The notes: generated by a model not told the origin, from the letters alone. A DNA stretch of 64,000 nucleotides from a virus (IMGVR_UViG_2654587772_000002), one strand, 5' to 3'; positions 1 through 64,000 are shown, counted from the first letter of the stretch. Made by a program: numbers and translations.

Positions 1-320
1 ACATCCCCCGTTTTATCACTCCCCGCAGAGATTCCGGTACCATTCAGCTTCTGGTTCAATGCCCGGACAAATGCCTGCATGGTCCGGTGTAACTGCAAAC
101 GAGTAGAACTAATCGCCTCCAATAAATCCGTAGCACACCAGTGGATCGGCGTGTCATAGAAGAACGTTGCCTCGATTTCCTCCAGGGTGTTGGATTCCGT
201 CATCAGATAGCGGTCCTGACCAGCCATTAATGCGCGATATTCATCATCAGTCACCGGCGGGGGAAGCACGTCAAGCCCCGGCTTAATCGTCACCCCTTTA
301 TTGATATTGAACTGTTCCAT
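1..320 (-). CDS. Hypothetical protein, partial (start codon at 320-318, runs off window start)
   Basis: ATG at 320 on minus strand opens an uninterrupted frame to position 1 (MEQFNINKGVTIKPG...); absent from ORF track because no stop in window. Confidence 0.35.
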   Translation of the reverse strand, partial: MEQFNINKGVTIKPGLDVLPPPVTDDEYRALMAGQDRYLMTESNTLEEIEATFFYDTPIHWCATDLLEAISSTRLQLHRTMQAFVRALNQKLNGTGISAGSDKTGD

Positions 321-321
321 G

Positions 322-933
322 TTAATTTCCTGCTTTCAGTTGCTTAAGACGGCGTTTGAGTTCGCCATTCCGTGCCTTTTCGTTATTGAGTCGGCCCGTC
401 TCCTTATCCAACTTCGCCCGCAAATCTGTGATCTGCTGTTGATTGAAAGACACCGAATTCTGCGCGGACTTATAAGCGGCAACCACCTGAGCATTCCGCT
501 GTTTTGCTTCTTGCAGGCGCTGAAAGTTGGATTTAACTGCCGGTTTCTTGTCTACCGGATTGGCAACACGCTTCGCTTTGGCGATCAGTGATTTCTGGAA
601 TTTCGCAGAGTTTTTGCGGGCCGCTTGCCCCATGACGGTACCAAGCGTCTTGATATCTGGCGACTGTGCGTTAGGAATAGATTTTCCATTCAGTTTCACA
701 GCCGATATATCACCAGTATCGTTTACCTGTATGGCAAGAATTTGTCCGTCGTTAAGAACCAGTTTTGCGGTTTTAACTTTAACGCCATCTTTCGTTGTTG
801 CGCGGTTGCTGGAGTCAACCTCAATTACCGTAACACCGGTTTTATTGATCGCCGCGATAAGGGATTTCAGCCCCTTTTCATTAACCTGGTCAAAATCGAC
901 CGTTGCATACTTATTTTTCGTCATCTGACACAT
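322..933 (-). CDS. Hypothetical protein with lysine-rich C-terminal coiled-coil
   Basis: 203-aa ORF; C-terminal heptad-like K/Q/E-rich region; no family recognised. Confidence 0.45.
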   Translation of the reverse strand: MCQMTKNKYATVDFDQVNEKGLKSLIAAINKTGVTVIEVDSSNRATTKDGVKVKTAKLVLNDGQILAIQVNDTGDISAVKLNGKSIPNAQSPDIKTLGTVMGQAARKNSAKFQKSLIAKAKRVANPVDKKPAVKSNFQRLQEAKQRNAQVVAAYKSAQNSVSFNQQQITDLRAKLDKETGRLNNEKARNGELKRRLKQLKAGN

Positions 934-1354
934 CCTGTGCGAGATTTATTACGTAACTTCTGCGGATTTGCTGAGTAACAGGGAAAATCCGATACAACGG
1001 GTTAATGAACGAGTCGCCATGCGTAACCATGACGTTGAAATGCCACAGTCGCTCTCCTTTACCCATATATTCAGTGGGTATGTACAACCATTCACTGTTT
1101 TCGCCCTGTTCAGCCGACGTCAGACAACGTTGTTCGCCTTCAATCACTGTCGTCGGCTTCTGAACATCGCGGATCCAATATCTGACCGTTGCGCCGCGCA
1201 AAAACGGGAATTTAGACCGGTATTTGAACGGCACCCGAATGAAACCCGGTTTAATTTCCACATCACCAAGTTCTAAATGCGTGATGTCCTTGCGTTTTAG
1301 CAAATAGCGATCGGCTAAGGCTAACGCAAGAACGCATACACCCCAGCCAATCAT
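911..1354 (-). CDS. Hypothetical protein with N-terminal hydrophobic segment
   Basis: 147-aa ORF, N-terminal GVCVLALALA hydrophobic stretch; overlaps neighbours by a few nt (operon-like). Confidence 0.4.
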   Translation of the reverse strand: MIGWGVCVLALALADRYLLKRKDITHLELGDVEIKPGFIRVPFKYRSKFPFLRGATVRYWIRDVQKPTTVIEGEQRCLTSAEQGENSEWLYIPTEYMGKGERLWHFNVMVTHGDSFINPLYRIFPVTQQIRRSYVINLAQDVSDDEK

Positions 1355-1680
1355 TTCCCACCTCCCTTTTTCACCAAACTTGTAAGAACATTCAGAATGC
1401 TATCGATATTCACTCGTTTCATCCCTGAAATCACCTCATGACCGTTATTGCTGGCTATCGTTACCATTAAGTACGTAATTGATAACTCCCAGCCTTCGTG
1501 TTGCCCCAATAGGTACGCCACCGCGCCAGCTGTCACTGCAACAAAGATCTCCGTAACCAATCCCAACAAGTTGCCAGACTGGCGACCATCTCGGACATCC
1601 ATCAGGAACGTGCCTATCCCACCAATTACTGAAAGCAGGAGCGCAATAGCAACTGGAGCTAATTCCTGTGTGTCAAGCAC
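1351..1680 (-). CDS. Small membrane protein, holin-like
   Basis: 109 aa, two to three predicted TM helices (LLSVIGGIGTFLM, IFVAVTAGAVAYLLG), charged C-terminus; topology typical of holins but family not confirmed. Confidence 0.4.
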   Translation of the reverse strand: MLDTQELAPVAIALLLSVIGGIGTFLMDVRDGRQSGNLLGLVTEIFVAVTAGAVAYLLGQHEGWELSITYLMVTIASNNGHEVISGMKRVNIDSILNVLTSLVKKGGGK

Positions 1681-1752
1681 AAGTTCCCTCCTACGTTGTC
1701 AGGAGGTAATGGTATGCAAAGTAACTTCTCAACCGGTCATGTTACTTGACAT

Positions 1753-1778
1753 CCTCCACGTCCTTTAGAGCGTGGAGG
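1753..1778. other. Perfect 8-bp stem / 10-nt loop hairpin immediately 5' of intron-like GTGCG
   Basis: cctccacg-tcctttagag-cgtggagg; 4 nt upstream of GTGCGCCC at 1783. Confidence 0.5.
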
Positions 1779-1782
1779 ATGT

Positions 1783-17854: not shown

Positions 17855-20800
17855 TCAGCTGATACTGATGCCTGCGGTGGCTTTCTTCATCACCACAACC
17901 AGCAAATCGCTGATACTTGCTGTGGGATACCAGCCATTTACCCACCATGCTGATACCGAAAACTCCAGTGTCATTACGCCACTGCCTGCAGGCATATCAA
18001 TAACACCCGTGTAAATCAGAGTATTATCCAGAGCCGTTCGGTTATAAATTTCAGCCCCGTTTTTCTTCACTATCAGGCGGCATGACGAATAAGTATCGCT
18101 ATTCTCCCGTTCATGTCTGGCACCGCTGAAAGCCACCGCCGGGATAACAATTTGCCGGTCAAACGGCTGATCGTCATAAACCCTGACGGTAATGGTCCCT
18201 GATGGCCACCGTTCCGGTGCACGGGAGTCACGGGGGAAAGCTTTGCCCACTGTTTTAACGAGATCGCCTTCAATCTGGTTCGCGGACAGTTTTCCCAGAA
18301 CCCGGCAGTTCTCGTTAATCGTGACGTTGTTGAGCGTCCCGGAGTTCGCATTCACGTTACCGCTGATATCGGCATTTTTTGCCGTCAGCCGCCCGTCCGG
18401 TGTCAGGGAAAATGCCGGAGGATTACCGCCGCTGGTAATGGTGGGAGCCGTCAGATATTTCAGGAACACTTCATTCATAAATATCTGATCGCCCTGACCA
18501 ACAAACATCGGCTTTGTGTTGCCATTCGCAGGATTAATCATCGCAATCCTGTCCGCCGCCAGCAGCACCTGACTCTGCATACCGTCAGGGGTATTCTCAA
18601 TACCGGCACCAATACCCGCGATATAAAGGCGTCCGTCCTGCATCTGCTGCAGCTTCACAGCCCACATGCTGTTCAGGTTATTATTTGTATCAACCTGAAC
18701 CTTCTGTATCTGCTGAATTGCCGCACTCTGGTCTTCCAGTTTCTTATTGACGGTCTGCGTGATTTCATTGCTGACATCCGTAATGGACGTCCTGATTTCA
18801 GCCAGGTCAGGCGCAAGCTGACCGTTATCAATCTGCGTCCACAGCTCCTGAGCCAGATGGCTTTTCCCTATCTCTCCTTTGAAAAAATCCAGATAGCCGG
18901 ATGCATCATCACTCGGCTGGCCAACAGCCTCCACAAATGCCGATTTGCCAACGGTGTTCACACTGCGGATGTAAAAATAATAATCATGGCCCGGTTTGAT
19001 ATTGATACTGGCGGCTATCCAGTACAGCGCCGTGCCAAGATAGCGGGCTGTGGTTTCAACCTGCCTGATATCGGTAATCCGCTTTTCCGAGAACCAGAAC
19101 TCAAACTGTACCGTCGGGTCATAAATGGCAAGATGCGGCGTGGCGGTTATCTGAAAATAGCCCGGCGTCAGCTCAATCCTCGACGGTGCTGCCGGTGCGG
19201 CAATCCGGAACGATACCGACGCCGCATCGCCCTGCTGCCCCACGCATTTACCGCCCGGACTGTCAGCCTGTAGTTCCCCAGCGCCAGTTGCGTGAAGCGG
19301 TATGTGGTTTCCGTCGTCCGGGCCGTGCTGACCAGCCGCTCACTGCCGTCGTCCGCTGTTACGGTCAGACGGAGCAGGAAGCTCACGCCCTTCACCACCT
19401 TCGGTGTGTCCCATCGCGCCAGCACCTGATATTCCCCGCTGTCTGCAGTGACTTCTGCGGTCAGGTGCTGCACCGCTGGCGGCGTGACACCATTCACCGT
19501 GCCACTCTGTTCGCCGTCAAAGTGCGCCCCGTTATCCACGATGGCCTCTTTTTCCGGCACATGCTGCACGGCGGTGATGGCATACGTGCCGTCGTCGTTC
19601 TCACGGATACTCACGCAGCGGAACAGGCGCTGGCGCAGCGTCGGCAGCTTCAGCCCCCATACGCTGTATTCAGCAACACCCTCAGGAACACGGCTCACTT
19701 TTACCTTCACGCCGTCGTTGACGGACTGAACCTCCACGCTGACCGGATTGCCACTTCCGTCAACCAGGCTTATCAGCGTGGTACCGGAGGATGGCAGCGT
19801 GATTTCACGGTCGAGCGTCAGCGTCCGGGTCTGGCTGTTCACCGCCAGCACACGACCACCGGTGCTGATACCGGCATAGTCATCATCGCAGATTTCAATA
19901 ACATCGCCCGGTACATGGCGAAGCCCTTCTGCGCCGACGCTGAAATCCACGGTCTGCGTCTCCAGCAGCTCCGTTTTAATCAGCCACAGCCCGGCGCGGT
20001 GTGCCTGCCCCCGGCTGGTACAGCCAAAGGCATCCATCTTCGTAACATTACGACCGTAACGGGCAATGGCCTGCGTATCTTCAACAAGCTCTGTCGCCGT
20101 CTCCCAGCCGTTGTCCGGGTCAATCCAGTTCACCTCAACGGCATTATGGCGGTCTTTCAGGGCGCTGAAGCTGTAGCGGAACGGCGCGCCATCATCCGGC
20201 ATCACCACATTACTGCGGTTATAGGTCCACGCCTTATCCGACGGTCGGTCCTGCACGAACGTCAGCGTCTGCCCGTTCCATACCGGCATACAGCGCATCG
20301 CCGAGCAGAAATCACTGAGAACGTCCCACGCCTTGCGCTGTGTGGTCAGGTACGCATTACAGGTGATGCGCGGCTCCGTGCCGCCAAAGCCGTCCGGCAC
20401 TGACTGGTCGCAGTACTGGCCGATGACATACAGCGCCCATTTGTCCACATCCGCCGCACCAAGACGTTTCCCCATGCCGTAGCGCGGATGGGTCAGCATA
20501 TCCCACAGACACCAGGCCATGTTGTTGCTGTATGCTGGCTTAAACGTTCCGTCCCAGATACCGCTGTATTGTCGCGTCTGCGGGTTATAGTTCGACGGCA
20601 CCTGCAGAATGCGCCCGCGAAGATGATAATTACGACTCACCTGCTGGCTGCCGAACTGCTCCGAGTCCACCTGTACGCCGACCAGTGCCGTGTTCGGGTA
20701 GCACTGTTTCACATCGATGATTTCGGTGTATGACGACCAGAGCGTTTTGTTCTGCAGCTGGTCTGTGGTGCTGTCCGGCGTCATCCTGCGCATCCGGATA

Positions 20801-21333
20801 TTAAACGGGCGCGGCGGCAGGTTATCCACCACCACCGAGGCCAGATACTGCGAGGTGGTTTTGCCTTTAATGGTGATGTCTTTTTCCGTCACCCAGCCAC
20901 CGTTACGCTGTATCTGAACCAGCAGGCGGACTTCCGACGGATTCCGGTCCCCCTTTGAGGTGGTTTCCACCAGTGCCTGCACACCGAAGGTAAAGCGCAG
21001 ACGGTCGATGTTTGCAGACGTGATGGTCCGGGTAATCGGCGTGTCGTACTTCACTTCCGTACCCAGCACCGTCTCGGAGCCGGAGGATTCAAACCCCTCC
21101 GGCGGTGTCTGCTCCTGCTCACCGGCACGGAACACCACCGTGACACCGGAGATGTTGGTATTCCCCTCAGTGTCCAGCACCGGCGTACTGTTCAGCAGCA
21201 CGCTTTTTAATCCATCCACCGGACCTTCAACCGGCCCTTCGCTGATGGCATCGATCACACTCAGCAACTGCGTGGACTTCAGGTTGTCCTTCGCTTCGCG
21301 CGGGGTATGCCCCTTACTGCTTCCTTTACTCAT
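17855..21333 (-). pseudogene. J: Tail tip / host specificity protein J, split into two ORFs by a 1-nt frameshift in a GGGG tract (~19238-19241)
   Basis: N-part (19168..21333) and C-part (17855..19243) both match lambda J; junction ..NAWG|QQGD.. is continuous in lambda; here tggggcagcag lacks one nt. Confidence 0.8.
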
Positions 21334-21393: not shown

Positions 21394-22065
21394 TCAGCGA
21401 CCAATCACCACAACCTGACCACCGTCCCCTTCGTCTGCCGTGCTGATCTCCTGAGAAACCACGCGTGACCCCACGCGCATTTCCCCGTACAGAACAGGCA
21501 GAACATTGCCCTGGGCAACCATGTTATCCAGTGAGGAGAAATAGGTGTTCTGCTTACCGTTATCCGTTGTCTGTGTACGGGGAGTTCTGGCTTTCGGTGC
21601 CAGCATCTGCGCCACACCACCGAGGACCATACTGGCACCGAGAGAAAACAGGATGCCGGTCATACCACCGGCCCCAATGGCTGCCCCCCATGCTGCAAGG
21701 GTGGCTCCGGCGGTAAAGAATGATCCGGCAATGGCGGCAGCCCCCAGGACAATCTGGAATACGCCACCTGACTTGGCCCCGGCGACTCTGGGAACAATAT
21801 GAATCACAGCGCCATCAGGCAGAGTCTCATGTAACTGCGCCGTTAACCCGGACGTGCTGACGTCCCGCCCGGCAATCCGTACCTGATACCAGCCGTCGCT
21901 CAGTTTCTGACGAAACGCCGGGAGCTGTGTGGCCAGTGCCCGGATGGCTTCAGCCCCCGTTTTCACACGAAGGTCGATGCGGCGACCAAATCGTTGTAAA
22001 TCCCCGTAAAGGCAGATGCGCGCCATGCCCGGTGACGCCAGAGGGAGTGTGTGCGTCGCTGCCAT
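21394..22065 (-). CDS. I: Tail assembly protein I
   Basis: Near-identical to lambda gpI as recalled (MAATHTLPLASPGMARICLYGDLQRFGRR...). Confidence 0.85.
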   Translation of the reverse strand: MAATHTLPLASPGMARICLYGDLQRFGRRIDLRVKTGAEAIRALATQLPAFRQKLSDGWYQVRIAGRDVSTSGLTAQLHETLPDGAVIHIVPRVAGAKSGGVFQIVLGAAAIAGSFFTAGATLAAWGAAIGAGGMTGILFSLGASMVLGGVAQMLAPKARTPRTQTTDNGKQNTYFSSLDNMVAQGNVLPVLYGEMRVGSRVVSQEISTADEGDGGQVVVIGR

Positions 22066-22706
22066 TTGTCGGTGTACCTCTCTCGTTTGCTCAGTTGTTC
22101 AGGAATATGGTGCAGCAGCTCACCGTCACCACAGTAAATGGCGGCATGATTCGGCACCGATGAACCAAAACAGCACAGCAGCACATCGCCCGGCTGCGCC
22201 GCTGACAACGGCACCTGATACAGCCCTGTGGCCTCCAGATTATCCAGATAGAGATTCTGACCGTGACGCCACCAGTCATCCCCGCGATGAAAATCCGGCA
22301 TCTCAATCCCCGCCAGATGATAAGCATCCCGGAACAGCGTGTAACAGTCCGTCACCCCGTGCTCAAAGCGCCGCCCGGTGAGATGCGGCACACAGCGGAA
22401 CTTATGAATCGCCCCCCGGCAGACCAGCCACCACGGCAAATCACTCTGCACCTGCAGCCGCCGGTCAGCCTCACTCAGCCAGGGCAGACCACCGGGGTGG
22501 CTGTGGACCAGCGCCACAATCTCACCCTGCATTTCTGCCTGCAGCCAGTCCTCCGGAGCCATCCGGAAATAATCCTCCGGCTCACCGGAAATATTCACGC
22601 CGGGAAAATATCTTTCCCCCTCCGGCGTGCTTACCACGAAGCCGCACGACTCCGCTGGCGCACATCGCCGGGCGTGCGCCAGAATCGCTGATTCTGTCTG
22701 TGTCAT
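21963..22706 (-). CDS. K: Tail assembly protein K (NlpC/P60 + JAB/MPN-type)
   Basis: HSHPGG motif; lambda gpK-like; overlaps I as in lambda. Confidence 0.85.
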   Translation of the reverse strand: MTQTESAILAHARRCAPAESCGFVVSTPEGERYFPGVNISGEPEDYFRMAPEDWLQAEMQGEIVALVHSHPGGLPWLSEADRRLQVQSDLPWWLVCRGAIHKFRCVPHLTGRRFEHGVTDCYTLFRDAYHLAGIEMPDFHRGDDWWRHGQNLYLDNLEATGLYQVPLSAAQPGDVLLCCFGSSVPNHAAIYCGDGELLHHIPEQLSKRERYTDKWQRRTHSLWRHRAWRASAFTGIYNDLVAASTFV

Positions 22707-22711
22707 GGGAT

Positions 22712-23410
22712 TTACTGCGAAAGTTTGTTAATGGAAAGGAAGCCGCCAAAGTTGCCGACGTTATTGCGAAACTTACAGCCACTCAGGCATTTGCTGCATT
22801 TATCCTTCGTGATATCGGACGTCGGCTGGTCATATTCATCCGCGACCGCCGGACCGCTATAACCGCACTCATCGCCGCGATAGGTCCAGGTGCAGGTGTT
22901 GGCCAGCATGATACGTCCCGGAAAAACAGCGCCATCCGTTTCAGTCGGCGTGGACAGTACAAAAGAGGCACTGACCGCGCTCAGTTCGCTGCACTGCTCG
23001 ATGCGCCAGCGGCTGATCACCTCCTGCTCCGGATCGGCTTCGCTGTTTCCGTTGACGAAGTTCACCGCATCCAGAAAGCGGGCGTAAACCTTACGCCGGA
23101 CCACCGTTCCGCCGACCAGACTCTGCAGATCTTCCGCCATCCCGGTGATCATGCCGTGCAGGTTAGAGACCGTCAGTGTCGGACGGGCAGCACTGCCCTT
23201 GCCGTTCATCTCAAATCCACTCCCCTGAATGGGATAGGCCTGATACTGCCGACTCTGCCAGGTGACAGACTCACCTTTTTCGTTCTGCTCATTACAGAAA
23301 AAGTAGCGATCCCCGTCTACCTCTGTCAGGTCGATTTCCCAGAGCACCACGCTGGCAGACTGCTCCGCACGAATGCATTCATTCAGCGTTTCCTGTTGTA
23401 TGTCCTGCAT
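22712..23410 (-). CDS. L: Minor tail protein L
   Basis: Lambda gpL-like, C-terminal Cys cluster (CSKCLSGC). Confidence 0.85.
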   Translation of the reverse strand: MQDIQQETLNECIRAEQSASVVLWEIDLTEVDGDRYFFCNEQNEKGESVTWQSRQYQAYPIQGSGFEMNGKGSAARPTLTVSNLHGMITGMAEDLQSLVGGTVVRRKVYARFLDAVNFVNGNSEADPEQEVISRWRIEQCSELSAVSASFVLSTPTETDGAVFPGRIMLANTCTWTYRGDECGYSGPAVADEYDQPTSDITKDKCSKCLSGCKFRNNVGNFGGFLSINKLSQ

Positions 23411-23748
23411 CAGATCACCACTTCGTCAAACTGACACGAAAAATCGGTATAGGTGATATGTTCTGTCGCTGACCACGTTCGACACACCACTCTGATTTTT
23501 CTGTTAATACCCGGCGGGCGCCAAAAAAAAGATTTATAGCCTTCATGCCGGGCTAAAAATTTTTCAAATGAATCACGTTCATTCGCCTCAACTTTGAAAT
23601 CACAGGTGAAAACGCGCAGAGAATGATTAAGTCCATTTGGACTTCGTTGCTCATAACCATCGCCAAATCTTACAGTTTTTATCGATGGTTTATTTTCTGT
23701 TTTCATTCCATCCTCTGGTAACCAGTGAAATTCTTCCGTATTAGCCAC
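23410..23748 (-). CDS. M: Minor tail protein M
   Basis: [16 protein letters not shown] motif as in lambda gpM. Confidence 0.85.
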
Positions 23749-28920: not shown

Positions 28921-28946
28921 AGGAGCCTCCTATGTCATTAATTGCG

Positions 28947-30495: not shown

Positions 30496-30498
30496 GTG

Positions 30499-35327: not shown

Positions 35328-35329
35328 AA

Positions 35330-41345: not shown

Positions 41346-41810
41346 TTACTTTAAACACTGCTCGGTTATGTATTGCTGAGCACCTTCAAGTTGGGCCTGC
41401 ATCATTACCAGTCGTTCCCGGAGGGTGAAATAATCCCGTTCAGCGGTGTCTGCCAGTCGGGGGGAGGCTGCATTATCCACGCCGGAGGCGGTGGTGGCTT
41501 CACGCACTGACTGACAGACTGCTTTGATGTGCAACCGACGACGACCAGCGGCAACATCATCACGCAGAACATCATTTTCAGCTTTCGCATCAGCTAACTC
41601 CTTCGTGTATTTTGCATCGAGCGCAGCAACATCACGCTGACGCATCTGCATGTCAGTAATTGCCGCGTTCGCCAGCTTCAGTTCTCTGGCATTTTTGTCG
41701 CGCTGTTCTTTGTAGGCGATGGCGTTATCACGGTAATGATTAACACCCCATGACAGGCAGACGACGATGCAGATAACCAGAGCGGAGATAATCGCGGTTA
41801 CTCTGTTCAT
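41346..41810 (-). CDS. Rz: Spanin inner-membrane subunit Rz
   Basis: N-terminal TM anchor followed by coiled-coil periplasmic region; downstream of endolysin. Confidence 0.8.
41405..41590 (-). CDS. Rz1: Spanin outer-membrane lipoprotein Rz1, embedded in Rz in the +1 frame
   Basis: [20 protein letters not shown] lipobox then proline-rich (PPPPPAW..PPPDW) periplasmic tail; entirely inside Rz. Confidence 0.75.
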
Positions 41811-42304
41811 TGCTGACCCCACAAACAGATTTCACGCTCAATCTCACGACGAGTCATGAGACCTTTCCATTGCTTACCGCCAGCATATGTCCAGCGACGT
41901 AGCTGATCACATGCGCCTTTGATATCGCCCTGGTTTATTTTGCGAAGAAGCGTCGATGTTCTGAAATTGCCAGCACCCACGTTGTAAACGAATGAGTAAA
42001 GAGCGCCGCGCGTTGTTTCCGGTATATCGACTTTGATGTACGGGTTAATTTGTCTGGCGACCGTGGCAAGGTCTTTATTCAAGAGTGTTTTGCATTCTGC
42101 TTTGGTATACGTTTTACCGAGCATGATGTCTTTTCCTGTATGCCCGTGACATACAGTCCATACACCAACAATATCTTTGTATGGTATGTAGCTGACACCT
42201 TCCAGACCATCGTTACCACTTGGGCCAGTGATTAACACTGATGCTATAGCAATTGCTCCGCCACCAATAGCAGCAGCAACGACTTTTCGTAATGATGGAG
42301 GCAT
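41807..42304 (-). CDS. R: SAR endolysin (lysozyme with N-terminal signal-anchor-release domain)
   Basis: Gly/Ala-rich N-terminal SAR helix ([18 protein letters not shown]) followed by lysozyme-type domain; phage 21 R-like. Confidence 0.85.
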
Positions 42305-42519
42305 TATTCACCTCTCGCAGCCTTGCGCTTATCTTCTTTAATCTTGAAATAAAGGTTTGTCAGGTACGTCAGCAGGCCAAATACCAGACTACCCAGCACA
42401 CCGATTGCAGCCCACTGTGACGGAGTTACTCTATCGAGCAACTGTAAAAACCAGTAGCCAGCACTGCCTGCGGAGGTGCCGTAGGCAATGCCTGTTGAAA
42501 TTTTGTCCATGGATTTCAT
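42304..42519 (-). CDS. S: Pinholin (phage 21 S-like) with dual-start MKSMDK motif
   Basis: [26 protein letters not shown]...[13 protein letters not shown] matches S21 as recalled; upstream in-frame extension to 42576 probably not translated. Confidence 0.85.
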
Positions 42520-42770: not shown

Positions 42771-43166
42771 CTAACCTCGCATGTCAAAGCCAGATTTCTG
42801 AAAATCTCTGTAGACTTCCGGATTGTTGAAGGCCGGAAATTTGGCTTTATGAGCTGCGGACTTTATCGCTTCGCAATAGGCTTTATCACCGTTACTGGTA
42901 GATATTTTTAACGCCGTACCATCCTGAGAGAATTCCATATGCAACCTGCATTTTTTCCCTTTCCAGTTATGCGGCTCATCAAGTTTGGCATTAATTGCAG
43001 CTCTGATTCCCCGCGCTTGCGCCCCCCATTCATCCTGATCATCCCAGCGTCCTGAACTGCAACTACCTGTAGCAGTAGTTTTGTGGCAATCTGAAGGGTG
43101 TAAAGGTGTGCATCCCGCAACAAAACCGACCCAAAAAGTCAACATAACGATTTTCTTTAATCCCAC
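42771..43166 (-). CDS. Lipoprotein (moron), paralog of 43317..43745
   Basis: Signal peptide with lipobox VAGC; shared C-terminal domain (GKKC.L.M....G..L.....GD...C.A...A..KA.FPA...PEVY..FQ). Confidence 0.6.
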   Translation of the reverse strand: MGLKKIVMLTFWVGFVAGCTPLHPSDCHKTTATGSCSSGRWDDQDEWGAQARGIRAAINAKLDEPHNWKGKKCRLHMEFSQDGTALKISTSNGDKAYCEAIKSAAHKAKFPAFNNPEVYRDFQKSGFDMRG

Positions 43167-43316
43167 TTCTTGCTCCTCAATCCATTAAAATCTCAGCAAT
43201 AGTAGTTGTTACGTCCGCCACTGGCTCAGAGCTGACTATCCGCTAAATTTAGCTCAGTGCCGTAGCTGTGTCAGAACAAACCTAAGCCGAAACCGTTTAT
43301 TACAAAACAATAAATA

Positions 43317-43745
43317 TCAGGGTTTAAAATCCAGCACCCCATTTTGAAATACTTTATATACTTCCGGCGAAGGGGGGGCAGGTATATCAGCATTCTTTAT
43401 CGCATTCATCGCTTCACGACATAAATCGAGGTCTCCACTTTCTCTTTTAACCTCCAGTAGAAGGCCATTCGGGGCCATATGCATTCTCAGTGTACACTCT
43501 TTTCCTGAATACTTACTCGCATCCCCGAACTGTTTTTCGATGGCGCTCTTGATTTGATGGGCATACAGACGGATATCCTCACTAACATCAGAAGTACGTT
43601 CAGATGAACTCACATACTGTGTCTCTATTGCTTTATCGGAGTAATATGATGTACGGTCATGATAATTTGTCGATACAGCATCAGTGCACCCGATAATAAT
43701 CCCACTAATAATCAACGTAAGAATTGATGCGCTACGAAAACCCAT
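43317..43745 (-). CDS. Lipoprotein (moron), paralog of 42771..43166
   Basis: Signal peptide with lipobox IIGC; same C-terminal domain as the neighbour. Confidence 0.6.
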   Translation of the reverse strand: MGFRSASILTLIISGIIIGCTDAVSTNYHDRTSYYSDKAIETQYVSSSERTSDVSEDIRLYAHQIKSAIEKQFGDASKYSGKECTLRMHMAPNGLLLEVKRESGDLDLCREAMNAIKNADIPAPPSPEVYKVFQNGVLDFKP

Positions 43746-55803: not shown

Positions 55804-55938
55804 ATGGTGCATTACGAAGTAGTTCAGTATTTGATGGATTGTTGCGGTATCACTTACAACCAGGCTGTGCAGGCTTTACGCAGCAACGACTGGGATCTCT
55901 GGCAGGCAGAAGTCGCTATACGTAGCAACAAGATGTGA
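55804..55938 (+). CDS. ydaG: Small early-left protein (44 aa)
   Basis: MVHYEVVQYLMDCCGITYNQAVQALRSNDWDLWQAEVAIRSNKM; symbol from recalled Rac order and size. Confidence 0.45.
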   Translation: MVHYEVVQYLMDCCGITYNQAVQALRSNDWDLWQAEVAIRSNKM

Positions 55939-55948
55939 GATTCGCAAA

Positions 55949-56104
55949 ATGCAAAAAATCGACCTCGGCAACAACGAATCCCTGGTGTGCGGCGTGTTCC
56001 CCAACCAGGATGGAACGTTCACTGCCATGACGTATACCAAAAGCAAAACATTTAAAACCGAAACTGGTGCGCGCCGATGGTTGGAGAAGCACACAGTAAG
56101 CTAA
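55949..56104 (+). CDS. ydaF: Small early-left protein (51 aa)
   Basis: MQKIDLGNNESLVCGVFPNQDGTFTAMTYTKSKTFKTETGARRWLEKHTVS; overlaps sieB 3' end by 4 nt. Confidence 0.45.
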   Translation: MQKIDLGNNESLVCGVFPNQDGTFTAMTYTKSKTFKTETGARRWLEKHTVS

Positions 56105-56589
56105 CGATTAAAACGTCTACTCCTGCTGTTCCAGAATAACTTCATAAAATGGGAGTATTTTTCGGTGACGAGATAATAAGAACAGTTTGCGCTATCACTC
56201 TGATGTTGAATGATGCCCTTCCGTTCTAATTTTTTCATAACCGGGTTACGGCAAGGAGAAGTGATAATAAGATTTCCTGTTTTAAGGAAATCTTTAAATA
56301 CAGCGATTTCTTTCTCAGATAAACGAAGCAATACTCGTTGCTCTGGTAGTAATGAATAATGCTTTTGAATATGTGCTCGCAATCTTGAGAAGGAAATGGC
56401 GACCACGAAAGAAAAGGCAAAAACGATAATCTGAAAGAGCCAAGGTATTTCAGTATAAGCATTGAATGCGACAGTAAACTCTTTCGGTATCAGCCAGAGA
56501 GTGAGACCAAAAATGATAATCGTATACATAAGTCTTTCGAGTGGCTCGTTAGCAAAAAGTTTCAACAATGGAGTAAATACATCCAACAT
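56101..56589 (-). CDS. sieB: Superinfection exclusion protein B
   Basis: 162-aa product from internal start MLDVFTPLLKLFANEPLERLMYTIIIFGLTLWLIP with TM segments; antisense to the early-left operon. Confidence 0.8.
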   Translation of the reverse strand: MLDVFTPLLKLFANEPLERLMYTIIIFGLTLWLIPKEFTVAFNAYTEIPWLFQIIVFAFSFVVAISFSRLRAHIQKHYSLLPEQRVLLRLSEKEIAVFKDFLKTGNLIITSPCRNPVMKKLERKGIIQHQSDSANCSYYLVTEKYSHFMKLFWNSRSRRFNR

Positions 56590-57030
56590 ATCAATAACTC
56601 TCAACTGTAAGGGTATTGAAATGTTAACACAAGCTCTCGCTGTAGGGGTATAGCCGAGACCACCGAAGCCCGGAGGTGGTGAAATAAAACCGGGCACAAC
56701 ACGAAGGCGCATTTCCGATATCCATAAAGAGTCGGTCTTGTCTGTTAAATTTAAATGGTGGGAGTGCGCCTCCGGTTGTAAATAACGACATTGCTGTGTG
56801 TAGTCCTGGCGGCATCAGTTTTTTTCTTGAAGTTCGGCTGATGTCCGCCCTTTTTAAAGTGAATTTTGTGATGCGGTGAATGCGGCTAAGCGCACGTGGC
56901 ACAGTTAAAAGTCATGTTTGTCCTTATTGGTTTGGGTGGGAAAGCCGACTGTAATTGTTAACTGGTTGCAGTCACCTGGAGGCACCAGGCACCGCATCAA
57001 CAAAGTTCATTTGTAAAAATGGAGATAATT

Positions 57031-57252
57031 ATGATTGCACATCACTTCGGAACTGATGAAATACCACGTCAGTGTGTGACTCCTGGCGATTATGTTCTTC
57101 ATGAAGGCCGGACATATATTGCCTCGGCAAACAATATTAAAAAGCGAAAACTATATATTCGTAACCTGACCACAAAAACATGCATTACTGACCGCATGAT
57201 TAAAGTCTTCCTCGGTCGTGATGGTTTACCTGTAAAGGCGGAGTCATGGTGA
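57031..57252 (+). CDS. kilR: Cell-division inhibitor KilR
   Basis: 73-aa product [46 protein letters not shown]... as recalled for Rac KilR; ORF-track start 57019 adds 4 residues. Confidence 0.7.
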
Positions 57253-57422
57253 TGACTAAGAAAATAAAATGTGCTTACCACCTTTGCAAAAAAGACGTTG
57301 AAGAAAGCAAAGCTATTGAAAGAATGCTTCACTTCATGCACGGGATTTTATCAAAAGACGAACCGAGAAAATATTGCAGTGAAGCTTGTGCCGAAAAAGA
57401 CCAGATGGCACATGAACTTTAA
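57252..57422 (+). CDS. ydaE: Small Cys/His-rich protein YdaE-like
   Basis: 56 aa, start overlaps kilR stop (TGATG); C..H..C pattern. Confidence 0.55.
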   Translation: MTKKIKCAYHLCKKDVEESKAIERMLHFMHGILSKDEPRKYCSEACAEKDQMAHEL

Positions 57423-57496
57423 TTAATTGACTATTCGAAACTGAATTTATGCCAGAAATGGCAGGTATTCGCTCAACCTTAATTAAGGAGAAAAAC

Positions 57497-57772
57497 ATGA
57501 TTACCAATTATGAAGCCACTGTTGTAACTACCGATGACATTGTTCACGAGGTGAATCTGGAAGGAAAGCGCATTGGCTACGTAATTAAAACAGAAAATAA
57601 AGAAACCCCATTCACTGTGGTTGATATCGATGGTCCATCAGGCAACGTAAAAACACTTGATGAAGGTGTCAAAAAAATGTGCCTGGTGCATATCGGAAAG
57701 AATCTGCCCACAGAAAAAAAAGCCGAATTTCTGGCAACTCTAATTGCAATGAAATTAAAAGGTGAAATCTGA
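57497..57772 (+). CDS. racC: RacC-like protein
   Basis: 91-aa product from ATG at 57497 (MITNYEATVV...), between ydaE and recE. Confidence 0.55.
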   Translation: MITNYEATVVTTDDIVHEVNLEGKRIGYVIKTENKETPFTVVDIDGPSGNVKTLDEGVKKMCLVHIGKNLPTEKKAEFLATLIAMKLKGEI

Positions 57773-57873
57773 AAGAAATAGCCTGCGTATGGCGCAGGCT
57801 ATGAACAGTGTGTATCCGGCAAGATCATTCACTGAACAAAACGAATTTTAATCTGAGTTGAGGTTAAAAAACA

Positions 57874-60800
57874 ATGAGCACAAAACCACTCTTCCTGTTA
57901 CGGAAAGCGAAAAAATCATCCGGTGAACCTGACGTCGTCCTGTGGGCAAGCAACGATTTTGAATCGACCTGTGCCACTCTGGACTACCTGATCGTTAAGT
58001 CAGGTAAAAAACTGAGCAGCTATTTTAAAGCTGTTGCCACGAATTTTCCTGTCGTTAATGACCTGCCCGCTGAAGGTGAGATCGATTTTACCTGGAGTGA
58101 ACGCTATCAACTCAGCAAAGACTCCATGACATGGGAACTAAAACCGGGAGCAGCACCAGACAACGCTCACTATCAAGGCAATACCAACGTCAACGGCGAA
58201 GACATGACTGAGATTGAGGAGAATATGCTACTCCCAATTTCTGGCCAGGAACTGCCCATTCGTTGGCTTGCTCAACACGGTAGCGAAAAACCGGTAACGC
58301 ACGTTTCACGCGACGGACTCCAGGCATTACACATTGCTCGGGCTGAAGAACTACCGGCTGTTACTGCCCTGGCTGTTTCCCACAAAACCAGCCTGCTCGA
58401 CCCGCTGGAAATTCGCGAACTCCACAAACTGGTTCGTGACACTGACAAAGTTTTCCCTAATCCTGGTAATTCAAACCTGGGACTGATAACTGCTTTTTTC
58501 GAAGCATACCTGAACGCTGACTACACCGATCGAGGACTGCTGACAAAAGAGTGGATGAAGGGTAATCGTGTTTCACACATCACTCGCACGGCTTCCGGTG
58601 CTAATGCTGGCGGCGGAAACCTCACCGATCGCGGCGAAGGTTTCGTACACGATCTGACGTCACTGGCGCGCGACGTAGCCACTGGCGTACTGGCCCGTTC
58701 AATGGATCTGGACATCTATAACCTTCATCCGGCACACGCTAAACGCATTGAGGAAATTATCGCTGAAAATAAACCGCCCTTTTCTGTTTTCCGCGACAAA
58801 TTCATCACCATGCCTGGCGGGCTGGATTATTCCCGCGCCATCGTGGTTGCGTCCGTAAAAGAAGCACCAATTGGGATCGAGGTCATCCCCGCGCACGTCA
58901 CTGAATATCTGAACAAAGTACTGACTGAAACCGATCATGCCAACCCTGATCCGGAAATCGTGGATATTGCCTGCGGTCGCTCCTCTGCCCCGATGCCGCA
59001 GCGAGTAACAGAAGAAGGAAAACAGGATGATGAAGAAAAACCGCAACCATCTGGAACAACGGCAGTTGAACAGGGAGAGGCTGAAACAATGGAACCGGAC
59101 GCAACTGAACATCATCAGGACACGCAGCCGCTGGATGCTCAGTCACAGGTAAATTCTGTTGATGCGAAATATCAGGAACTGCGGGCAGAACTCCATGAAG
59201 CCCGGAAAAACATTCCATCAAAAAATCCTGTCGATGCCGATAAATTGCTTGCTGCATCACGTGGTGAATTTGTTGACGGAATTAGCGACCCAGACGATCC
59301 GAAATGGGTAAAGGGGATCCAGACTCGCGATTGTGTGTACCAGAACCAGCCAGAAACGGAAAAAACCAGCCCGGATATGAATCAACCTGAGCCAGTAGTG
59401 CAACAGGAACCGGAAATAGCCTGCAATGCCTGCGGCCAGACTGGCGGGGATAACTGCCCTGACTGTGGTGCGGTGATGGGCGACGCAACATACCAGGAAA
59501 CATTCGATGAAGAGAGTCAGGTTGAAGCTAAGGAAAATGATCCGGAGGAAATGGAAGGCGCTGAACATCCGCACAATGAGAATGCTGGCAGCGATCCGCA
59601 TCGTGATTGCAGTGATGAAACTGGTGAAGCGTCAGCTCCTGTAGCAACTGAAATCATGTGGCCGTCATATTTCGAGCCTGGCCGCTATGAAAACCTCCCG
59701 AACGAGGTTTATCACTCCGCCAACGGAATAAGCAGCACGATGCTGAAGGATGCCCGTATCAGCCTGATGTATTACCATGGACGGCACATTGCCGGAACTA
59801 TTCCGAACGAGGAAAGTGATGCACTGCTGCGTGGGCGGATCATTCACAGCTATGTTCTGGAAACGGATAAATTCGCTGATGAATATGCCATTCCGGTACC
59901 GGTTCCTGAATATGTGGTTACTACTTCTAACGAACTGATCGCCATCATTAAAAAACACAATGCCAGTCTGCCAGCACTGATGACACCAGAGCAGATGAAA
60001 GAGTGGATCGAAAGCTACAACAGCACTCTTATACAGCCACTGTCTGTAAGTGCCGGGGCCGAAGAAACAGGCATCCTTTACGGTTCGCTTCCGGTGGAAT
60101 TTCGGCGTATTCCTGAGGGGGAAAAACACACAGCATCAGCAATGAAAGCCTGTATTAAAGAATACAACGCAAGCCTCCCTCCTCTGTTGAAAACCAGTGG
60201 AGCACGGGAGCAGCTTCTGGATCAAATTGAAACTGTAGCCCCAGAACTAGCAAAAAAAGAACGTGCTAAATCTTTGCCTTACAACATCAGTGGCACAAAA
60301 GAGCAATTAACCGAAATCGCACGGCAAATTCGCCCGGAACTGGTGACTCTGGAGGACTGGCAAAAACGCCAGCAAGAAGAAAACGCCGGGAAAACGTTTA
60401 TCAGTCCGGATATGTATGAACAGGCAAAAAATATTCACGCGGCACTACAAAACAATACCGATGCAGCAAGGTTACTCAACCACCCGGATCGCAAATCTGA
60501 AATCAGCTATTTCGGGTTTGATGAAGAAACCGGGCTGGAAATCAGGGTCCGTCCTGATATCGAAATCCGGCTGCCATACGAAAGCATTTGCGCTGACGTG
60601 AAGTCAGTCAGCCTCGGTTATGTGCGACAGGAACGACTTAAAGATCGCCTGCACCGTGAAATTATTGAACGTGATTATCATCTCAGCGCCGCAATGTATT
60701 GCGATGTGGCAAACCTGGACAAATTTTTCTGGATCTTCGTCAACAAAGATGCTGGCTATCACTGGGTGGCAGTCGTGGAAGCCTCGCAGGAACTCCTGGA

Positions 60801-60945
60801 ACTTGGTCGACAGGAATATCGCCGGACGCTACGCCAGATAAACGAAGCCCTGGAGACAAACAACTGGCCAGCACCGATTACCGAAAGTTATACCGACGAA
60901 TTAAACGACTTTGATCTTCGTCGTCTTGAAGCACTGAGCATCTGA
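57874..60945 (+). CDS. recE: RecE-family 5'-3' exonuclease (exonuclease VIII-like), 1023 aa
   Basis: N-terminus [36 protein letters not shown] as recalled for RecE; acidic linker; C-terminal PD-(D/E)xK-like region (..[20 protein letters not shown]..). Confidence 0.8.
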
Positions 60946-60956
60946 GGAAGGACACA

Positions 60957-62009
60957 ATGAACGAATTAACTCAACAAGAAAATATTAACTCTAATGTTGC
61001 GGTTTTCAGCCCTCAGTCCCTGGCTGCAATTCAGACATTTTCCCAGGTAATGGCTTCCGGCATGGCTACTGTACCGGAACACCTCCGGGGAAATCCATCA
61101 GACTGCATGGCCATCACCATGCAGGCGATGCAGTGGCAAATGAACCCTTACGCAGTAGCTCAGAAAACTTTCGTTGTGAATGGTGTGCTCGGATATGAAG
61201 CGCAACTGGTTAATGCCGTAATCAGTACTCGTGGGCCGCTAACCGGGCGTATTGAATATGACTGGTTCGGGCCGTGGGAAAAAATTATCGGGAAATTTGA
61301 AATCAGGAAGAGCGACAAAGGGAAAGAATATCGTGTACCTGGCTGGAAGCTGGCCGATGAAAACGGGATCGGTGTTCGTGTCCAGGCAACACTACGCGGC
61401 GAAAGTAAACCACGCGTACTGGAATTACTTCTGGCGCAGGCCAGAACACGTAACTCAACGCTATGGGCCGACGATCCTCGCCAGCAGCTTGCCTATCTGG
61501 CGCTGAAACGCTGGGCGCGCCTTTATTGCCCCGAAGTGATTCTTGGAGTGTACACCAGGGACGAACTGGACGAGCCACAGGAAAAAATCATTAATCCGGT
61601 TCAGGAACATAAAAACACTTCCGCTTGCCGCGCTGAACGTGAAACAACAATTATTGAGCAGGATGCCGGGGAAAACTGGATCGATGCTTTCCGTGAACGT
61701 ATTGAGCAGGCACAAAGCACCGGGGAAACAACAGCACTTCGCCAGGAAGTGGAAGATCATAAAAATACACTTGGCGCTCTCTATACGGAACTTAAAGGAA
61801 AAGTGGTTCAGCGTCATCACCGTCTCAATGCTATTGCCCGTATCGAGAAGATGATAAATGACCTACCTTCTTCAGGTGATCCAGAAGCAGAACAAAAATT
61901 TACTGCTCTGGAAAATACGCTGAATGCTGCCCGGCCACATCTGGGTGAATTATATGAGGCGTATAAAACGACACTGACAGATATGAAACCAGAATATATC
62001 GGCTCCTGA
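60957..62009 (+). CDS. recT: RecT/Red-beta-family single-strand annealing protein
   Basis: Position directly after exonuclease gene; conserved C-terminal pattern (..NSTLWADDPRQQLAYLALKRWARLYCPEV..). Confidence 0.7.
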   Translation: MNELTQQENINSNVAVFSPQSLAAIQTFSQVMASGMATVPEHLRGNPSDCMAITMQAMQWQMNPYAVAQKTFVVNGVLGYEAQLVNAVISTRGPLTGRIEYDWFGPWEKIIGKFEIRKSDKGKEYRVPGWKLADENGIGVRVQATLRGESKPRVLELLLAQARTRNSTLWADDPRQQLAYLALKRWARLYCPEVILGVYTRDELDEPQEKIINPVQEHKNTSACRAERETTIIEQDAGENWIDAFRERIEQAQSTGETTALRQEVEDHKNTLGALYTELKGKVVQRHHRLNAIARIEKMINDLPSSGDPEAEQKFTALENTLNAARPHLGELYEAYKTTLTDMKPEYIGS

Positions 62010-62072
62010 TATTGACTTTGGCGGTGTAGCCTCACCGCCATCACAAAATTTTATTTTATGAGAGAAAAGACA

Positions 62073-62267
62073 ATGCGGTATGAAAAAGTCAAACCATGCC
62101 CTTTTTGTGGTTGTCTATCAGTAACGGTAAAAGCCATTTCAGGATATTACCGCGCGAAGTGTAACGGATGCGAATCCCGAACCGGCTATGGTGGAAGTGA
62201 AAAAGAAGCACTCGAACGATGGAATAAACGAACCACTGGAAATAATAATGGAGGTGTTCATGTATAA
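62073..62267 (+). CDS. ralR: Restriction alleviation protein Lar/RalR
   Basis: 64 aa, MRY..VKPCPFCGC.SVTVKAISGYYRAKCNGCESRTGYGGSEKEALERWNKRT Cys4 motif. Confidence 0.8.
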   Translation: MRYEKVKPCPFCGCLSVTVKAISGYYRAKCNGCESRTGYGGSEKEALERWNKRTTGNNNGGVHV

Positions 62268-62448
62268 AATTACCGCCACTATTGAAAAGGAAGGTGGCAC
62301 TCCTACTAACTGGACAAGGTACTCAAAAACAAAATTAACCAAATCAGAATGCGAAAAAATGCTCTCAGGTAAAAAAGAAGCAGGCGGTTCCAGAGAGCAG
62401 AAAGTAAAACTGATAAATTTTAATTGCGAGAAACTTCAGTCGTCGTGA
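62260..62448 (+). CDS. ydaC: YdaC-like small protein
   Basis: 62-aa ORF from ATG at 62260 overlapping ralR 3' end. Confidence 0.45.
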   Translation: MYKITATIEKEGGTPTNWTRYSKTKLTKSECEKMLSGKKEAGGSREQKVKLINFNCEKLQSS

Positions 62449-62547
62449 ATTGCATTGTATTCAAATTAAAACTTCATAGCTGATTATTAATAATCAACAT
62501 CGGGCGTCAATTTCAGTCTAACATTGGCGCCTGCCAGAGGTGATGCG

Positions 62548-62763
62548 ATGGCACAAGTAATCTTTAATGAAGAGTGGATGGTTGAATACGGCCTGATGCT
62601 TCGCACTGGTCTGGGGGCCAGACAAATTGAAGCATACCGCCAGAACTGTTGGGTGGAAGGCTTCCACTTCAAACGAGTATCTCCTTTAGGGAAGCCAGAC
62701 AGTAAGCGAGGGATTATCTGGTACAACTATCCAAAGATAAATCAGTTTATCAAAGACTCATGA
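62548..62763 (+). CDS. xisR: Excisionase
   Basis: 71-aa basic protein immediately upstream of and abutting the integrase gene. Confidence 0.65.
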
Positions 62764-62764
62764 T

Positions 62765-64000
62765 ATGTCTAAATTACCAACAGGTGTCGAGATTCGAGGT
62801 AAATACATTCGCATCTGGTTCATGTTTCGAGGAAAACGATGTCGGGAAACATTGAAAGGCTGGGAGGTTACTAACAGTAACATTAAAAAGGCCGGGAATT
62901 TAAGAGCGTTGATAGTTCATGAAATCAACTCCGGTGAATTTGAGTATTTAAGACGTTTTCCCCAGTCCAGCACTGGGGCAAAAATGGTGACAACGAGGGT
63001 CATAAAAACGTTCGGGGAGCTTTGTGATATCTGGACAAAAATTAAAGAGACAGAGTTAACAACAAACACAATGAAGAAAACGAAATCACAATTAAAAACA
63101 CTCAGGATAATAATTTGTGAGAGTACACCTATATCACATATTCGTTATAGCGATATCTTAAACTACCGGAATGAACTGCTGCATGGAGAAACGCTTTACC
63201 TGGATAATCCAAGATCCAACAAAAAAGGAAGAACCGTGCGCACAGTTGATAACTATATCGCCCTGCTCTGTTCGTTGTTACGTTTTGCGTATCAGTCGGG
63301 ATTTATATCAACCAAACCATTTGAAGGAGTAAAAAAATTACAGCGAAACAGAATAAAGCCTGATCCGTTATCTAAAACAGAATTCAATGCATTAATGGAA
63401 AGTGAAAAAGGACAGAGCCAGAACTTGTGGAAATTTGCCGTTTACTCCGGGCTTCGTCACGGGGAACTGGCTGCTCTGGCGTGGGAGGATGTGGATTTCG
63501 AGAAGGGAATTGTGAATGTCAGAAGAAACCTGACGATACTTGATATGTTCGGTCCCCCAAAAACAAATGCCGGGATCCGGACGGTAACATTACTACAGCC
63601 AGCTCTTGAAGCACTGAAGGAGCAATACAAACTGACCGGGCATCATCGCAAAAGCGAAATCACTTTTTATCATCGGGAGTACGGCAGAACCGAAAAGCAA
63701 AAACTGCATTTTGTTTTCATGCCCAGGATGTGTAACGGAAAACAGAAACCTTATTACTCGGTAAGCAGTTTGGGTGCGAGATGGAATGCAGCAGTAAAAC
63801 GTGCTGGTATTCGCCGCCGTAATCCGTACCATACGCGACATACTTTTGCCTGCTGGCTGTTGACGGCAGGAGCGAACCCGGCATTTATAGCCAGCCAGAT
63901 GGGGCATGAAACTGCGCAGATGGTGTATGAAATTTACGGTATGTGGATTGATGACATGAACGACGAACAGGTAGCTATGTTGAATGCGCGGTTATCGTAG
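62765..64000 (+). CDS. intR: Tyrosine-type site-specific integrase
   Basis: 411 aa, C-terminal catalytic region (..RHGELAALAWEDVDF..YHTRHTFACWLLTAGANPAFIASQMGHE..); stop codon is the last triplet of the window. Confidence 0.85.
   Translation: MSKLPTGVEIRGKYIRIWFMFRGKRCRETLKGWEVTNSNIKKAGNLRALIVHEINSGEFEYLRRFPQSSTGAKMVTTRVIKTFGELCDIWTKIKETELTTNTMKKTKSQLKTLRIIICESTPISHIRYSDILNYRNELLHGETLYLDNPRSNKKGRTVRTVDNYIALLCSLLRFAYQSGFISTKPFEGVKKLQRNRIKPDPLSKTEFNALMESEKGQSQNLWKFAVYSGLRHGELAALAWEDVDFEKGIVNVRRNLTILDMFGPPKTNAGIRTVTLLQPALEALKEQYKLTGHHRKSEITFYHREYGRTEKQKLHFVFMPRMCNGKQKPYYSVSSLGARWNAAVKRAGIRRRNPYHTRHTFACWLLTAGANPAFIASQMGHETAQMVYEIYGMWIDDMNDEQVAMLNARLS

Follow-up and report, generated by a model that had tools for sequence, protein, structure and literature searches.

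A Rac-type prophage of Escherichia coli and adjoining P1-like DNA in a 64-kb viral sequence, probably joined in assembly

The sequence IMGVR_UViG_2654587772_000002 (64,000 nucleotides, all of it analyzed here and referred to as the window) consists of two unrelated temperate-phage genomes that adjoin each other, that is, P1-like DNA at positions 1-17677 (17.7 kb, about a quarter of the window) and a Rac-type prophage at positions 17678-64000 (46.3 kb). A Rac-type prophage of ~53 kb and P1-like DNA, brought together in assembly, can be held with good confidence to be the best explanation overall. A sequence-only reading had taken the whole of 1-64000 for a Rac-type prophage; this holds for 17678-64000, but 1-17677 is P1-like (Punavirus) DNA. 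As judged from its gene content, the prophage is the full-length counterpart of the Rac remnant of E. coli K-12, and it belongs to a common, already described kind of prophage.

The two phage sequences and their junction

The window in full has no match in any record of the collections searched. In detail, CP007394, a chromosome record of E. coli ST2747, matches 27022-64000 with 100% identity, most of the window outside this stretch is matched at 99.9% or more by a sister ST2747 record (CP007393), and the same prophage is found in FDAARGOS_1279 with 99.96% identity. On the basis of its matches to CP007393 and CP007394, the window probably stems from the third ST2747 assembly, CP007392. Repeats of at least 40 bp, sought as marks of attachment (att) sites or of insertion sequence (IS) ends, are absent from the window, and so are tRNA genes.

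By its alignments, the stretch 1-17677 is assigned to the late region of a P1-like (Punavirus, IncY) genome and placed outside the Rac-type prophage. Positions 1-1740 and 6397-16713 are collinear with 29504-46647 of P1 (NC_005856), at 98.2% and 94.5% nucleotide identity, respectively; ~12 kb are aligned and the P1 gene order is kept. P1-like plasmids of 91-105 kb show a continuous match as far as 17677. The normal state of P1-like phages is a plasmid of ~95 kb. The genes repA, parA, and parB lie outside the window, and the P1 block of both CP007393 and CP007394 carries them.

Neither att site is located in the window, in which the prophage is interrupted at 17677/17678. The att repeat of the ttcA side is found in CP007394, 59-101 bp past the right edge of the window (64059-64101), and the other copy is located in CP007393, close to uspF; both are imperfect 43-bp repeats with a perfect core of 26 nucleotides (nt), the same as in K-12. 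The far prophage end, consisting of the rest of lom, stf, pinR, ynaE, and attR, is absent from the window. In FDAARGOS_1279, the prophage runs uninterrupted from ttcA to uspF with J, lom, stf, pinR, and attR intact; past lom there is a side tail fibre set of 791, 93, 346, and 97 amino acids (aa), followed by a tfa remnant, pinR, ydfK, and ynaM. Side tail fibre genes, a second fibre gene included, are also annotated in CP007393. The window part and the distal part of CP007393 together give an att-to-att length of ~53.1 kb. The native element would be a lambdoid prophage of ~53 kb at ttcA, a full-length equivalent of the Rac relic in K-12, and its intact presence in the strain can be inferred from the sister assemblies and FDAARGOS_1279.

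A truncated lom had been reported in the window. Only the first 111 nt of the gene (37 codons; 17677-17787, minus strand) are indeed present, and they correspond by alignment to the beginning of lom in FDAARGOS_1279, where the gene is intact and 600 nt long; what had been read as a lesion is a blunt junction with P1-like DNA. There, P1 homology ends within a plasmid gene, 76 nt short of its 3′ end, and meets codon 37 of lom with an ambiguity of 1 nt and with no IS or att sequence. The junction is probably a point of contig concatenation and not a biological one.

The way in which the ST2747 genomes were produced has been published: PacBio C2 sequencing at ~28-fold coverage yielded ~14 scaffolds per strain, which were ordered as a "gapless chromosome," chromosome records alone were deposited, and the three records represent a parent and two derivatives after three platings (PMC3983296). 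Under the proposed mechanism, the PacBio scaffolds, the plasmid contig included, would have been put in order and strung together as a single chromosome record. The breakpoints between Rac and P1 sequences differ by assembly, being placed in lom in the window, in the N-terminus of stf in CP007393, and in K in CP007394. CP007393 carries a P1 block of ~92 kb with repA-parAB between direct copies of a 4,465-bp J′-lom-stf′ stretch (8 mismatches and 10 gap openings apart), with the intact lom-stf-pinR-ynaE-attR-uspF end located past the second copy. In CP007394, the overlap is ~6 kb long, extends from the tube gene to K, and is rich in indels (21 and 10 gap openings). Window 15314-17676, which holds tub and pmgC, is missing from CP007393, and the ends of the P1 block appear as arbitrary cuts of a circle. 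Compared with plasmid CP027575, six indel bases fall at 16755-17341, within ~0.9 kb of the junction, where a 260-aa open reading frame (ORF) that is intact in plasmids is split into three frames; the preceding 2.2 kb contain zero indels, and 16755-17341 looks like a poorly polished contig end. The differing breakpoints, the duplicated flanks, and the clustered indels thus point to unmerged contig ends with the plasmid contig between them.

The P1-like S gene (5026-6293) and the Rac-type stf (L005 9495-10762) share 1,268 bp at 93.5% identity and in the same orientation, a stretch best read as an exchanged tail fibre segment. CP007393 lacks 4933-6519, in which this homology is contained. The 1.27-kb homology was also considered as the cause of the join and was rejected, because no breakpoint lies within that segment.

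The J frameshift and other readings of the window

The second apparent lesion of the prophage, a frameshift in the tail tip gene, is present in the window as described in the sequence-only reading:

17855..21333, minus strand: tail tip protein J, split into ORFs 19168-21333 and 17855-19243, with Pfam J domains spread over both

As a true lesion, however, it is open to doubt, and a consensus error is probable. The run of C at 19238-19241 has four bases in the window, whereas FDAARGOS_1279 and each of the two J copies of CP007393 have five, and this is the single gap (besides ten substitutions) between the window and FDAARGOS_1279 over 26.1 kb. Frameshifts are found elsewhere in the sister records, namely in K and the tube gene of CP007393 and in the tape measure gene of CP007394; in the prophage flank of CP007394 (L001 295-5504), three conserved genes of the chromosome, namely a major facilitator superfamily permease gene, zntB, and ynaL, carry frameshift annotations as well, which is suggestive of frequent indel errors in the 2014 PacBio ST2747 records. 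Since the extra base is present in three other copies, the site is a homopolymer, and such errors are many in the series, the one-base loss in J is most likely a homopolymer consensus error of a low-coverage assembly.

The same evidence makes it unlikely that the prophage is gene-complete and yet truly and recently inactivated, either by a real J mutation or by cargo that enlarged its genome beyond what can be packaged. The one-base loss does stand in the window sequence, but two of the copies with the extra base belong to the clonal CP007393. As for the length, ~53 kb from att to att compares with 49.6 kb in phage HK639, and no visible particles came from K-12 lysogens of Sp10, a gene-complete Rac-like prophage (PMC2669165).

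Slightly less likely again is a true integration of the P1-like element within the Rac-type prophage, by which lom was broken, J was parted from stf and attR, and a nested, mutually inactivated pair arose. P1-like DNA is located within the Rac tail region in all three ST2747 assemblies, the S/stf homology could support recombination, and the flanking direct repeats fit a Campbell-type integration. These features have to be set against breakpoints that differ among clone derivatives only three platings apart and that never fall in the S/stf homology, a junction devoid of microhomology, IS, or att sequence, and flank copies whose differences are limited to small mismatches and indels such as sequencing errors produce. 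Moreover, the P1 block holds a full plasmid replicon and partition system, and the published method joined scaffolds. A P1-like phage that entered lom by illegitimate recombination, giving nested prophages with a junction that shifted between the clonal derivatives, has a smaller chance still. Finally, that the whole 64 kb form one Rac-type prophage, with the left part as its tail fibre, baseplate, and cargo genes, is scarcely credible: the P1-like tail fibre and assembly genes are 80% identical (aa) to K-12 stfR and tfaR, but this reading is refuted because 1-17677 is collinear with P1 and P1-like plasmids at 94-98%, and in addition myovirus baseplate, tail tube, and sit genes are out of place in a lambda-like siphovirus and the native lom-stf-pinR-attR end is seen in FDAARGOS_1279 and farther on in CP007393 and CP007394.

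Some points weigh against a gene-complete prophage joined to P1-like DNA in assembly. The junction 17677/17678 occurs in no complete E. coli genome of the collection, and an exact protein look-up gave no identical gene product on record for the frameshifted J fragment. On its Rac side (17678-18139), the junction shows no errors against FDAARGOS_1279, unlike the usual ragged contig end. Direct repeats around the plasmid would also be expected from a Campbell-type integration if the plasmid carried a Rac segment, and the argument for an artefact is built on sister assemblies and the published method, not on reads. With ~53 kb, the prophage is 7% longer than HK639 and may exceed the capacity of its head. 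Gene completeness is, moreover, no proof of function, such as the formation of infectious particles.

If the P1-like DNA was joined to the prophage in assembly, as preferred here, the window serves as a caution: a scaffold-concatenated "complete" genome can put plasmid-phage DNA inside a chromosomal prophage, and assembly can create apparent lesions, such as the truncated lom and the frameshifted J, that invite biological stories.

Gene content of the two parts

The early genes had been described as following the Rac order, and K-12 Rac proteins were found by tblastn in their K-12 order at 52060-64000, most of them with 95-100% aa identity. The matched set comprises intR, xisR, rcbA, ralR, recE, racC, ydaE, kilR, sieB, ydaF, ydaG, racR, ydaS, ydaT, ydaU, ydaV, and ydaW. 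The early features are as follows:

62765-64000, plus strand: intR, 98.8% aa identity to K-12; the window ends with the int stop codon
62548-62763, plus strand: xisR, 100% aa identity to K-12
55804..62469, plus strand: early-left operon with ydaG, ydaF, kilR, ydaE, racC, recE, the RecT-family gene, ralR, and rcbA
62260-62469, plus strand: rcbA (tblastn)
62266-62444, minus strand: RalA antitoxin small RNA (212 bits)
62073-62267, plus strand: ralR (tblastn)
60957-62009, plus strand: RecT-family gene (PF03837)
57874-60945, plus strand: recE (tblastn of K-12 proteins)
56101-56589, minus strand: sieB, within the early-left region
55019-55495, plus strand: racR, 98.7% aa identity to K-12
54599-54895, minus strand: ydaS, 99.0% aa identity to K-12
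54154-54576, minus strand: ydaT, 95.7% aa identity to K-12
53288-54076, minus strand: O-like replication initiator with the YdaU C-terminus (phage replication-initiator family and tblastn)
52535-53281, minus strand: ydaV, DnaC-like loader (tblastn of K-12 proteins)
51751-52512, minus strand: full-length ydaW, DUF1627 (tblastn of K-12 proteins)
51313-51735, minus strand: DUF977 gene (domain match)
50811-51152, minus strand: pseudogene with fragments of phrog_660, a family with no assigned function; flagged in CP007394 by the Prokaryotic Genome Annotation Pipeline (PGAP)

The early region departs from that of K-12 in RecT, in the nuclease domain of RecE, and in the N-terminus of YdaU. For recT the claimed Rac order fails, as K-12 RecT has no match and a different RecT-family gene is found at its position (350 aa, PF03837), paired with a PDDEXK domain. 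The match of recE to K-12 is limited to the N-terminal 734 aa (84%); the C-terminal nuclease domain, which scores as PDDEXK, is only 29% identical to that of K-12. In ydaU the K-12 match is confined to the C-terminal 124 aa and the N-terminal half differs, and the protein is a full-length match to a phage replication-initiator family.

The immunity region, racR with divergent ydaS-ydaT, is arranged as in K-12 Rac. RacR (158 aa) matches the NCBIfam RacR equivalog with 242 bits against a cut-off of 200; a search of Pfam and NCBIfam for an S24 peptidase domain in it found none, nor was a solved relative found.

The lysis, packaging, head, and tail modules are complete, as had been proposed: from the Q-like gene to I, the genes are intact according to Pfam, PHROG, and PGAP, J excepted. 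The late features are:

45619-46218, minus strand: DUF1367, late control region
45329-45619, minus strand: YbcO, late control region
44790-45332, minus strand: Q-like antiterminator (DUF1133), late control region
43856-44042, minus strand: STnc100 RNA, downstream of the Q-like gene
42304-42519, minus strand: holin; the PGAP names in the lysis cassette are essD, rrrD, and lysis protein
41807-42304, minus strand: lysozyme (PGAP on CP007394)
41346-41810, minus strand: Rz, of the lysis cassette 41346..42519
41405-41590, minus strand: Rz1, embedded in Rz; matches K-12 RzoR over 61/61 aa (98%)
36612-37706, minus strand: terS (PHROG)
35330-36631, minus strand: terL (PHROG)
33921-35327, minus strand: portal (PHROG)
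32825-33937, minus strand: head morphogenesis (PHROG)
31956-32720, minus strand: scaffold (PHROG)
30718-31857, minus strand: P22-family coat (PHROG)
29336-30675, minus strand: head-tail connector genes (PGAP on CP007394)
28947-29339, minus strand: tail terminator (PGAP on CP007394)
27958-28920, minus strand: tail tube (PGAP on CP007394)
27140..27807, minus strand: tail assembly chaperones G (ydaY) and T (phrog_313 and phrog_1189)
23741-26974, minus strand: tape measure (Pfam)
23410-23748, minus strand: M (Pfam)
22712-23410, minus strand: L (Pfam)
21963-22706, minus strand: K (Pfam)
21394-21966, minus strand: I (Pfam)

The head and packaging genes (30718..37706) have PHROG E-values of 1e-64 to 1e-183, and the region 27958..30675 also has a match to phrog_290. 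In the chaperone genes the slippery heptamer A AAA AAG is intact at 27460-27454 and the -1 frame is open (G/GT). All tail genes at 21394..26974 are intact according to PGAP in FDAARGOS_1279, and in the CP007394 stretch identical to 27022-64000 the only pseudogene flagged is that at 50811-51152.

Cargo insertions had also been noted, and those identified in the prophage comprise trkG, a pair of TolA-like genes, and an island with a methyltransferase gene. They are listed here together with two genes upstream of terS:

39751..41208, minus strand: trkG potassium transporter, 100% aa identity to K-12 TrkG
42771..43745, minus strand: two TolA C-terminal-domain genes (Pfam PF06519), between the Q/STnc100 region and the holin gene
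38822-39613, minus strand: ParB/Srx-domain protein of 263 aa, just upstream of terS
37897-38829, minus strand: TAGT-family glycosyltransferase (PF20691, phrog_842)
46718-48109, plus strand: GHKL ATPase of 463 aa (HATPase_c_3), low-GC island
48106-49098, plus strand: PF20553 "putative O-methyltransferase" of 330 aa, overlapping the GHKL ATPase gene
49066-50217, minus strand: C5 DNA methyltransferase, convergent to the other two island genes

In related prophages, toxin cargo is found at the position matching the two TolA-like genes. The ParB/Srx and TAGT genes may take part in DNA modification; the glycosyltransferase is of a TET-associated family, and no TET/JBP gene is seen nearby. The island 46718-50217 has a GC content of 35-38% and lies in a nin-like region. 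Among its products only the methyltransferase is matched by PADLOC models, and the GHKL ATPase and the PF20553 protein have no naming match in PADLOC, NCBIfam, PDB sequences, or the literature. The island may be restriction-modification-like or defence cargo.

Every expected function is encoded and, save for J, undisrupted: replication by O-like and DnaC-like genes, late control, lysis, packaging and a head of the HK639 kind, and a lambda-like tail. The earlier statement that no essential gene besides J is disrupted agrees with this, as no such gene was found in the prophage part of the window. The prophage is likely gene-complete. The suggestion of an intact prophage is supported to this extent, but both ends are absent from the window and intactness is inferred. 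Sp10 offers a comparison: all its morphogenetic genes are conserved, its repressor has no peptidase domain, its circular forms are not raised by mitomycin C, and a marked copy was transferred to K-12 at low efficiency, with no particles from K-12 lysogens (PMC2669165). Excision of K-12 Rac is driven by XisR and RpoS (PMC4632033). Because RacR has no S24 domain and Sp10 is not inducible by mitomycin, mitomycin C could fail to induce even a functional element; by analogy, low-level spontaneous excision without SOS inducibility would be expected.

The features of the P1-like part are:

1-320, minus strand: darA′ (P1 alignment)
322-933, minus strand: hdf (P1 alignment)
911-1354, minus strand: lydB (P1 alignment)
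1351-1680, minus strand: lydA (P1 alignment)
1741-6396, minus strand: non-P1 replacement block, in place of P1 31244-36336
5001-7988, minus strand: S-like tail fibre, P1-like
7913-8347, minus strand: R (P1 alignment)
8426-9265, minus strand: gene 16 (P1 alignment)
9262-10695, minus strand: bplA (P1 alignment)
10692-11051, minus strand: pmgA (P1 alignment)
11048-14476, minus strand: sit (P1 alignment)
14558-15439, minus strand: pmgB (P1 alignment)
15454-16065, minus strand: tub (P1 alignment)
16076-16642, minus strand: pmgC (P1 alignment)
16.7-17.68 kb, minus strand: sim-region variant, differing from P1

The darA-lydA and S-pmgC blocks are common to P1 and the window, whereas lydC, cin, and the C segment of P1 are replaced and the sim region is a variant. 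In detail, P1 31244-36336 (lydC, cin, and the invertible C segment) has no counterpart in the window except for one inverted match of 155 bp. The replacement block contains a hexapeptide acetyltransferase gene (2679-3242), a different tail fibre set, and a 5′ fragment of a group II intron, which matches Rfam RF02001 and RF01998 at 1864-2127 and has no ORF for a reverse transcriptase. Other P1-like plasmids show this arrangement as well, and 80% or more of 1700-2700 is covered in 35 plasmid records.

P1-like DNA was also observed within the last 100 kb of another chromosome-sized record, that of E. coli EC16 (NZ_CM169485.1, 5104502-5120614), where a plasmid may likewise have been attached to the chromosome sequence.

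Relation to K-12 Rac and other Rac-like prophages

Of 5,426 complete E. coli genomes, 672 (~12%) cover 80% or more of the late module (window 22000-44000), and 34 of the 5,426 cover 80% or more of the early half (44000-64000). Near-identical prophage predictions are already on deposit in the phage database; these relatives (ON4705xx) were considered as proof of virions and rejected, all being prophages predicted from genome sequences. With a late module this frequent and full-size Rac-like prophages already published, the element opens no new question.

The closest cultured phage by capsid protein is HK639 (NC_016158), with 75% aa identity over 99% of the length. It has no extended nucleotide similarity to the window element and is shorter, but the identity of the coat proteins indicates that the head type belongs to viable lambdoid phages.

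Published full-size Rac-like prophages at ttcA include Sp10 and CP-933R (PMC4632033, PMC2669165), and strains producing type II heat-labile enterotoxin (LT-II) carry toxin-bearing Rac-like prophages such as Rac-SA53 (PMC5917428). The published elements are lambdoid, ~50 kb long, located at ttcA, with a Rac-type early-left region, and have been called full-sized or morphogenetically complete (PMC4632033, PMC5917428, PMC2669165). Rac-SA53 can be aligned over 44% of window 42001-64000, with 92% identity, and, unlike the window element, has dicA/dicC-type immunity and toxin cargo. A prophage at ttcA of enterohaemorrhagic E. coli (EHEC), not itself identified as Sp10 or CP-933R, has the same recET allele and carries identical copies of the methyltransferase island proteins at the same place; it differs from the window element in helix-turn-helix regulators that are not annotated as RacR/YdaS and in a lambda-like head module that includes an S49 protease and a decoration protein. 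The comparison of immunity region and head module covered Rac-SA53 and the EHEC example.

The K-12 Rac remnant (NC_000913 1411899-1434958) shares with the window element the ttcA module, including IntR, XisR, and the 43-bp att repeat, as well as RacR/YdaS/YdaT, kilR-ydaE-racC, sieB, ydaF/G, and ralR/RalA. Its late relics rzoR, trkG, ynaK, ydaY, and ynaA have counterparts in the same order in the window, with 97-100% aa identity. Most of the early genes, the immunity region, and the late relics are collinear in an alignment to K-12 Rac, which had been proposed as a check; recT, the RecE nuclease, the YdaU N-terminus, and 1-17677 do not follow K-12. The window element differs from the remnant in these RecT, RecE, and YdaU alleles, in the methyltransferase island, and in having the Q, lysis, packaging, and head genes and most of the tail genes, which K-12 Rac lacks together with the rest of window 41791-52060, of 27798-39356, and of the stretch from 26039 to lom; in K-12, lom contains an IS5. 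K-12 Rac would be derivable from the window layout by three deletions, of 41791-52060, of 27798-39356, and from 26039 into lom. The K-12 genes ydaW, ynaK, and ynaA each stop exactly at a deletion junction: ynaK is an 86-aa stump of the window ParB gene, and the first 312 aa of the ynaA product (342 aa) match the N-terminus of the tape measure protein.

Prophages of this type offer a good template for K-12 Rac before its decay, with the three K-12 deletions placed to a few bases, and are useful for work on racR, ydaST, kilR, recET, ralR, and trkG. As it keeps the K-12 immunity region and the counterparts of the late relics, the window element models the K-12 Rac ancestor more closely, on sequence grounds, than Rac-SA53 or the EHEC example.

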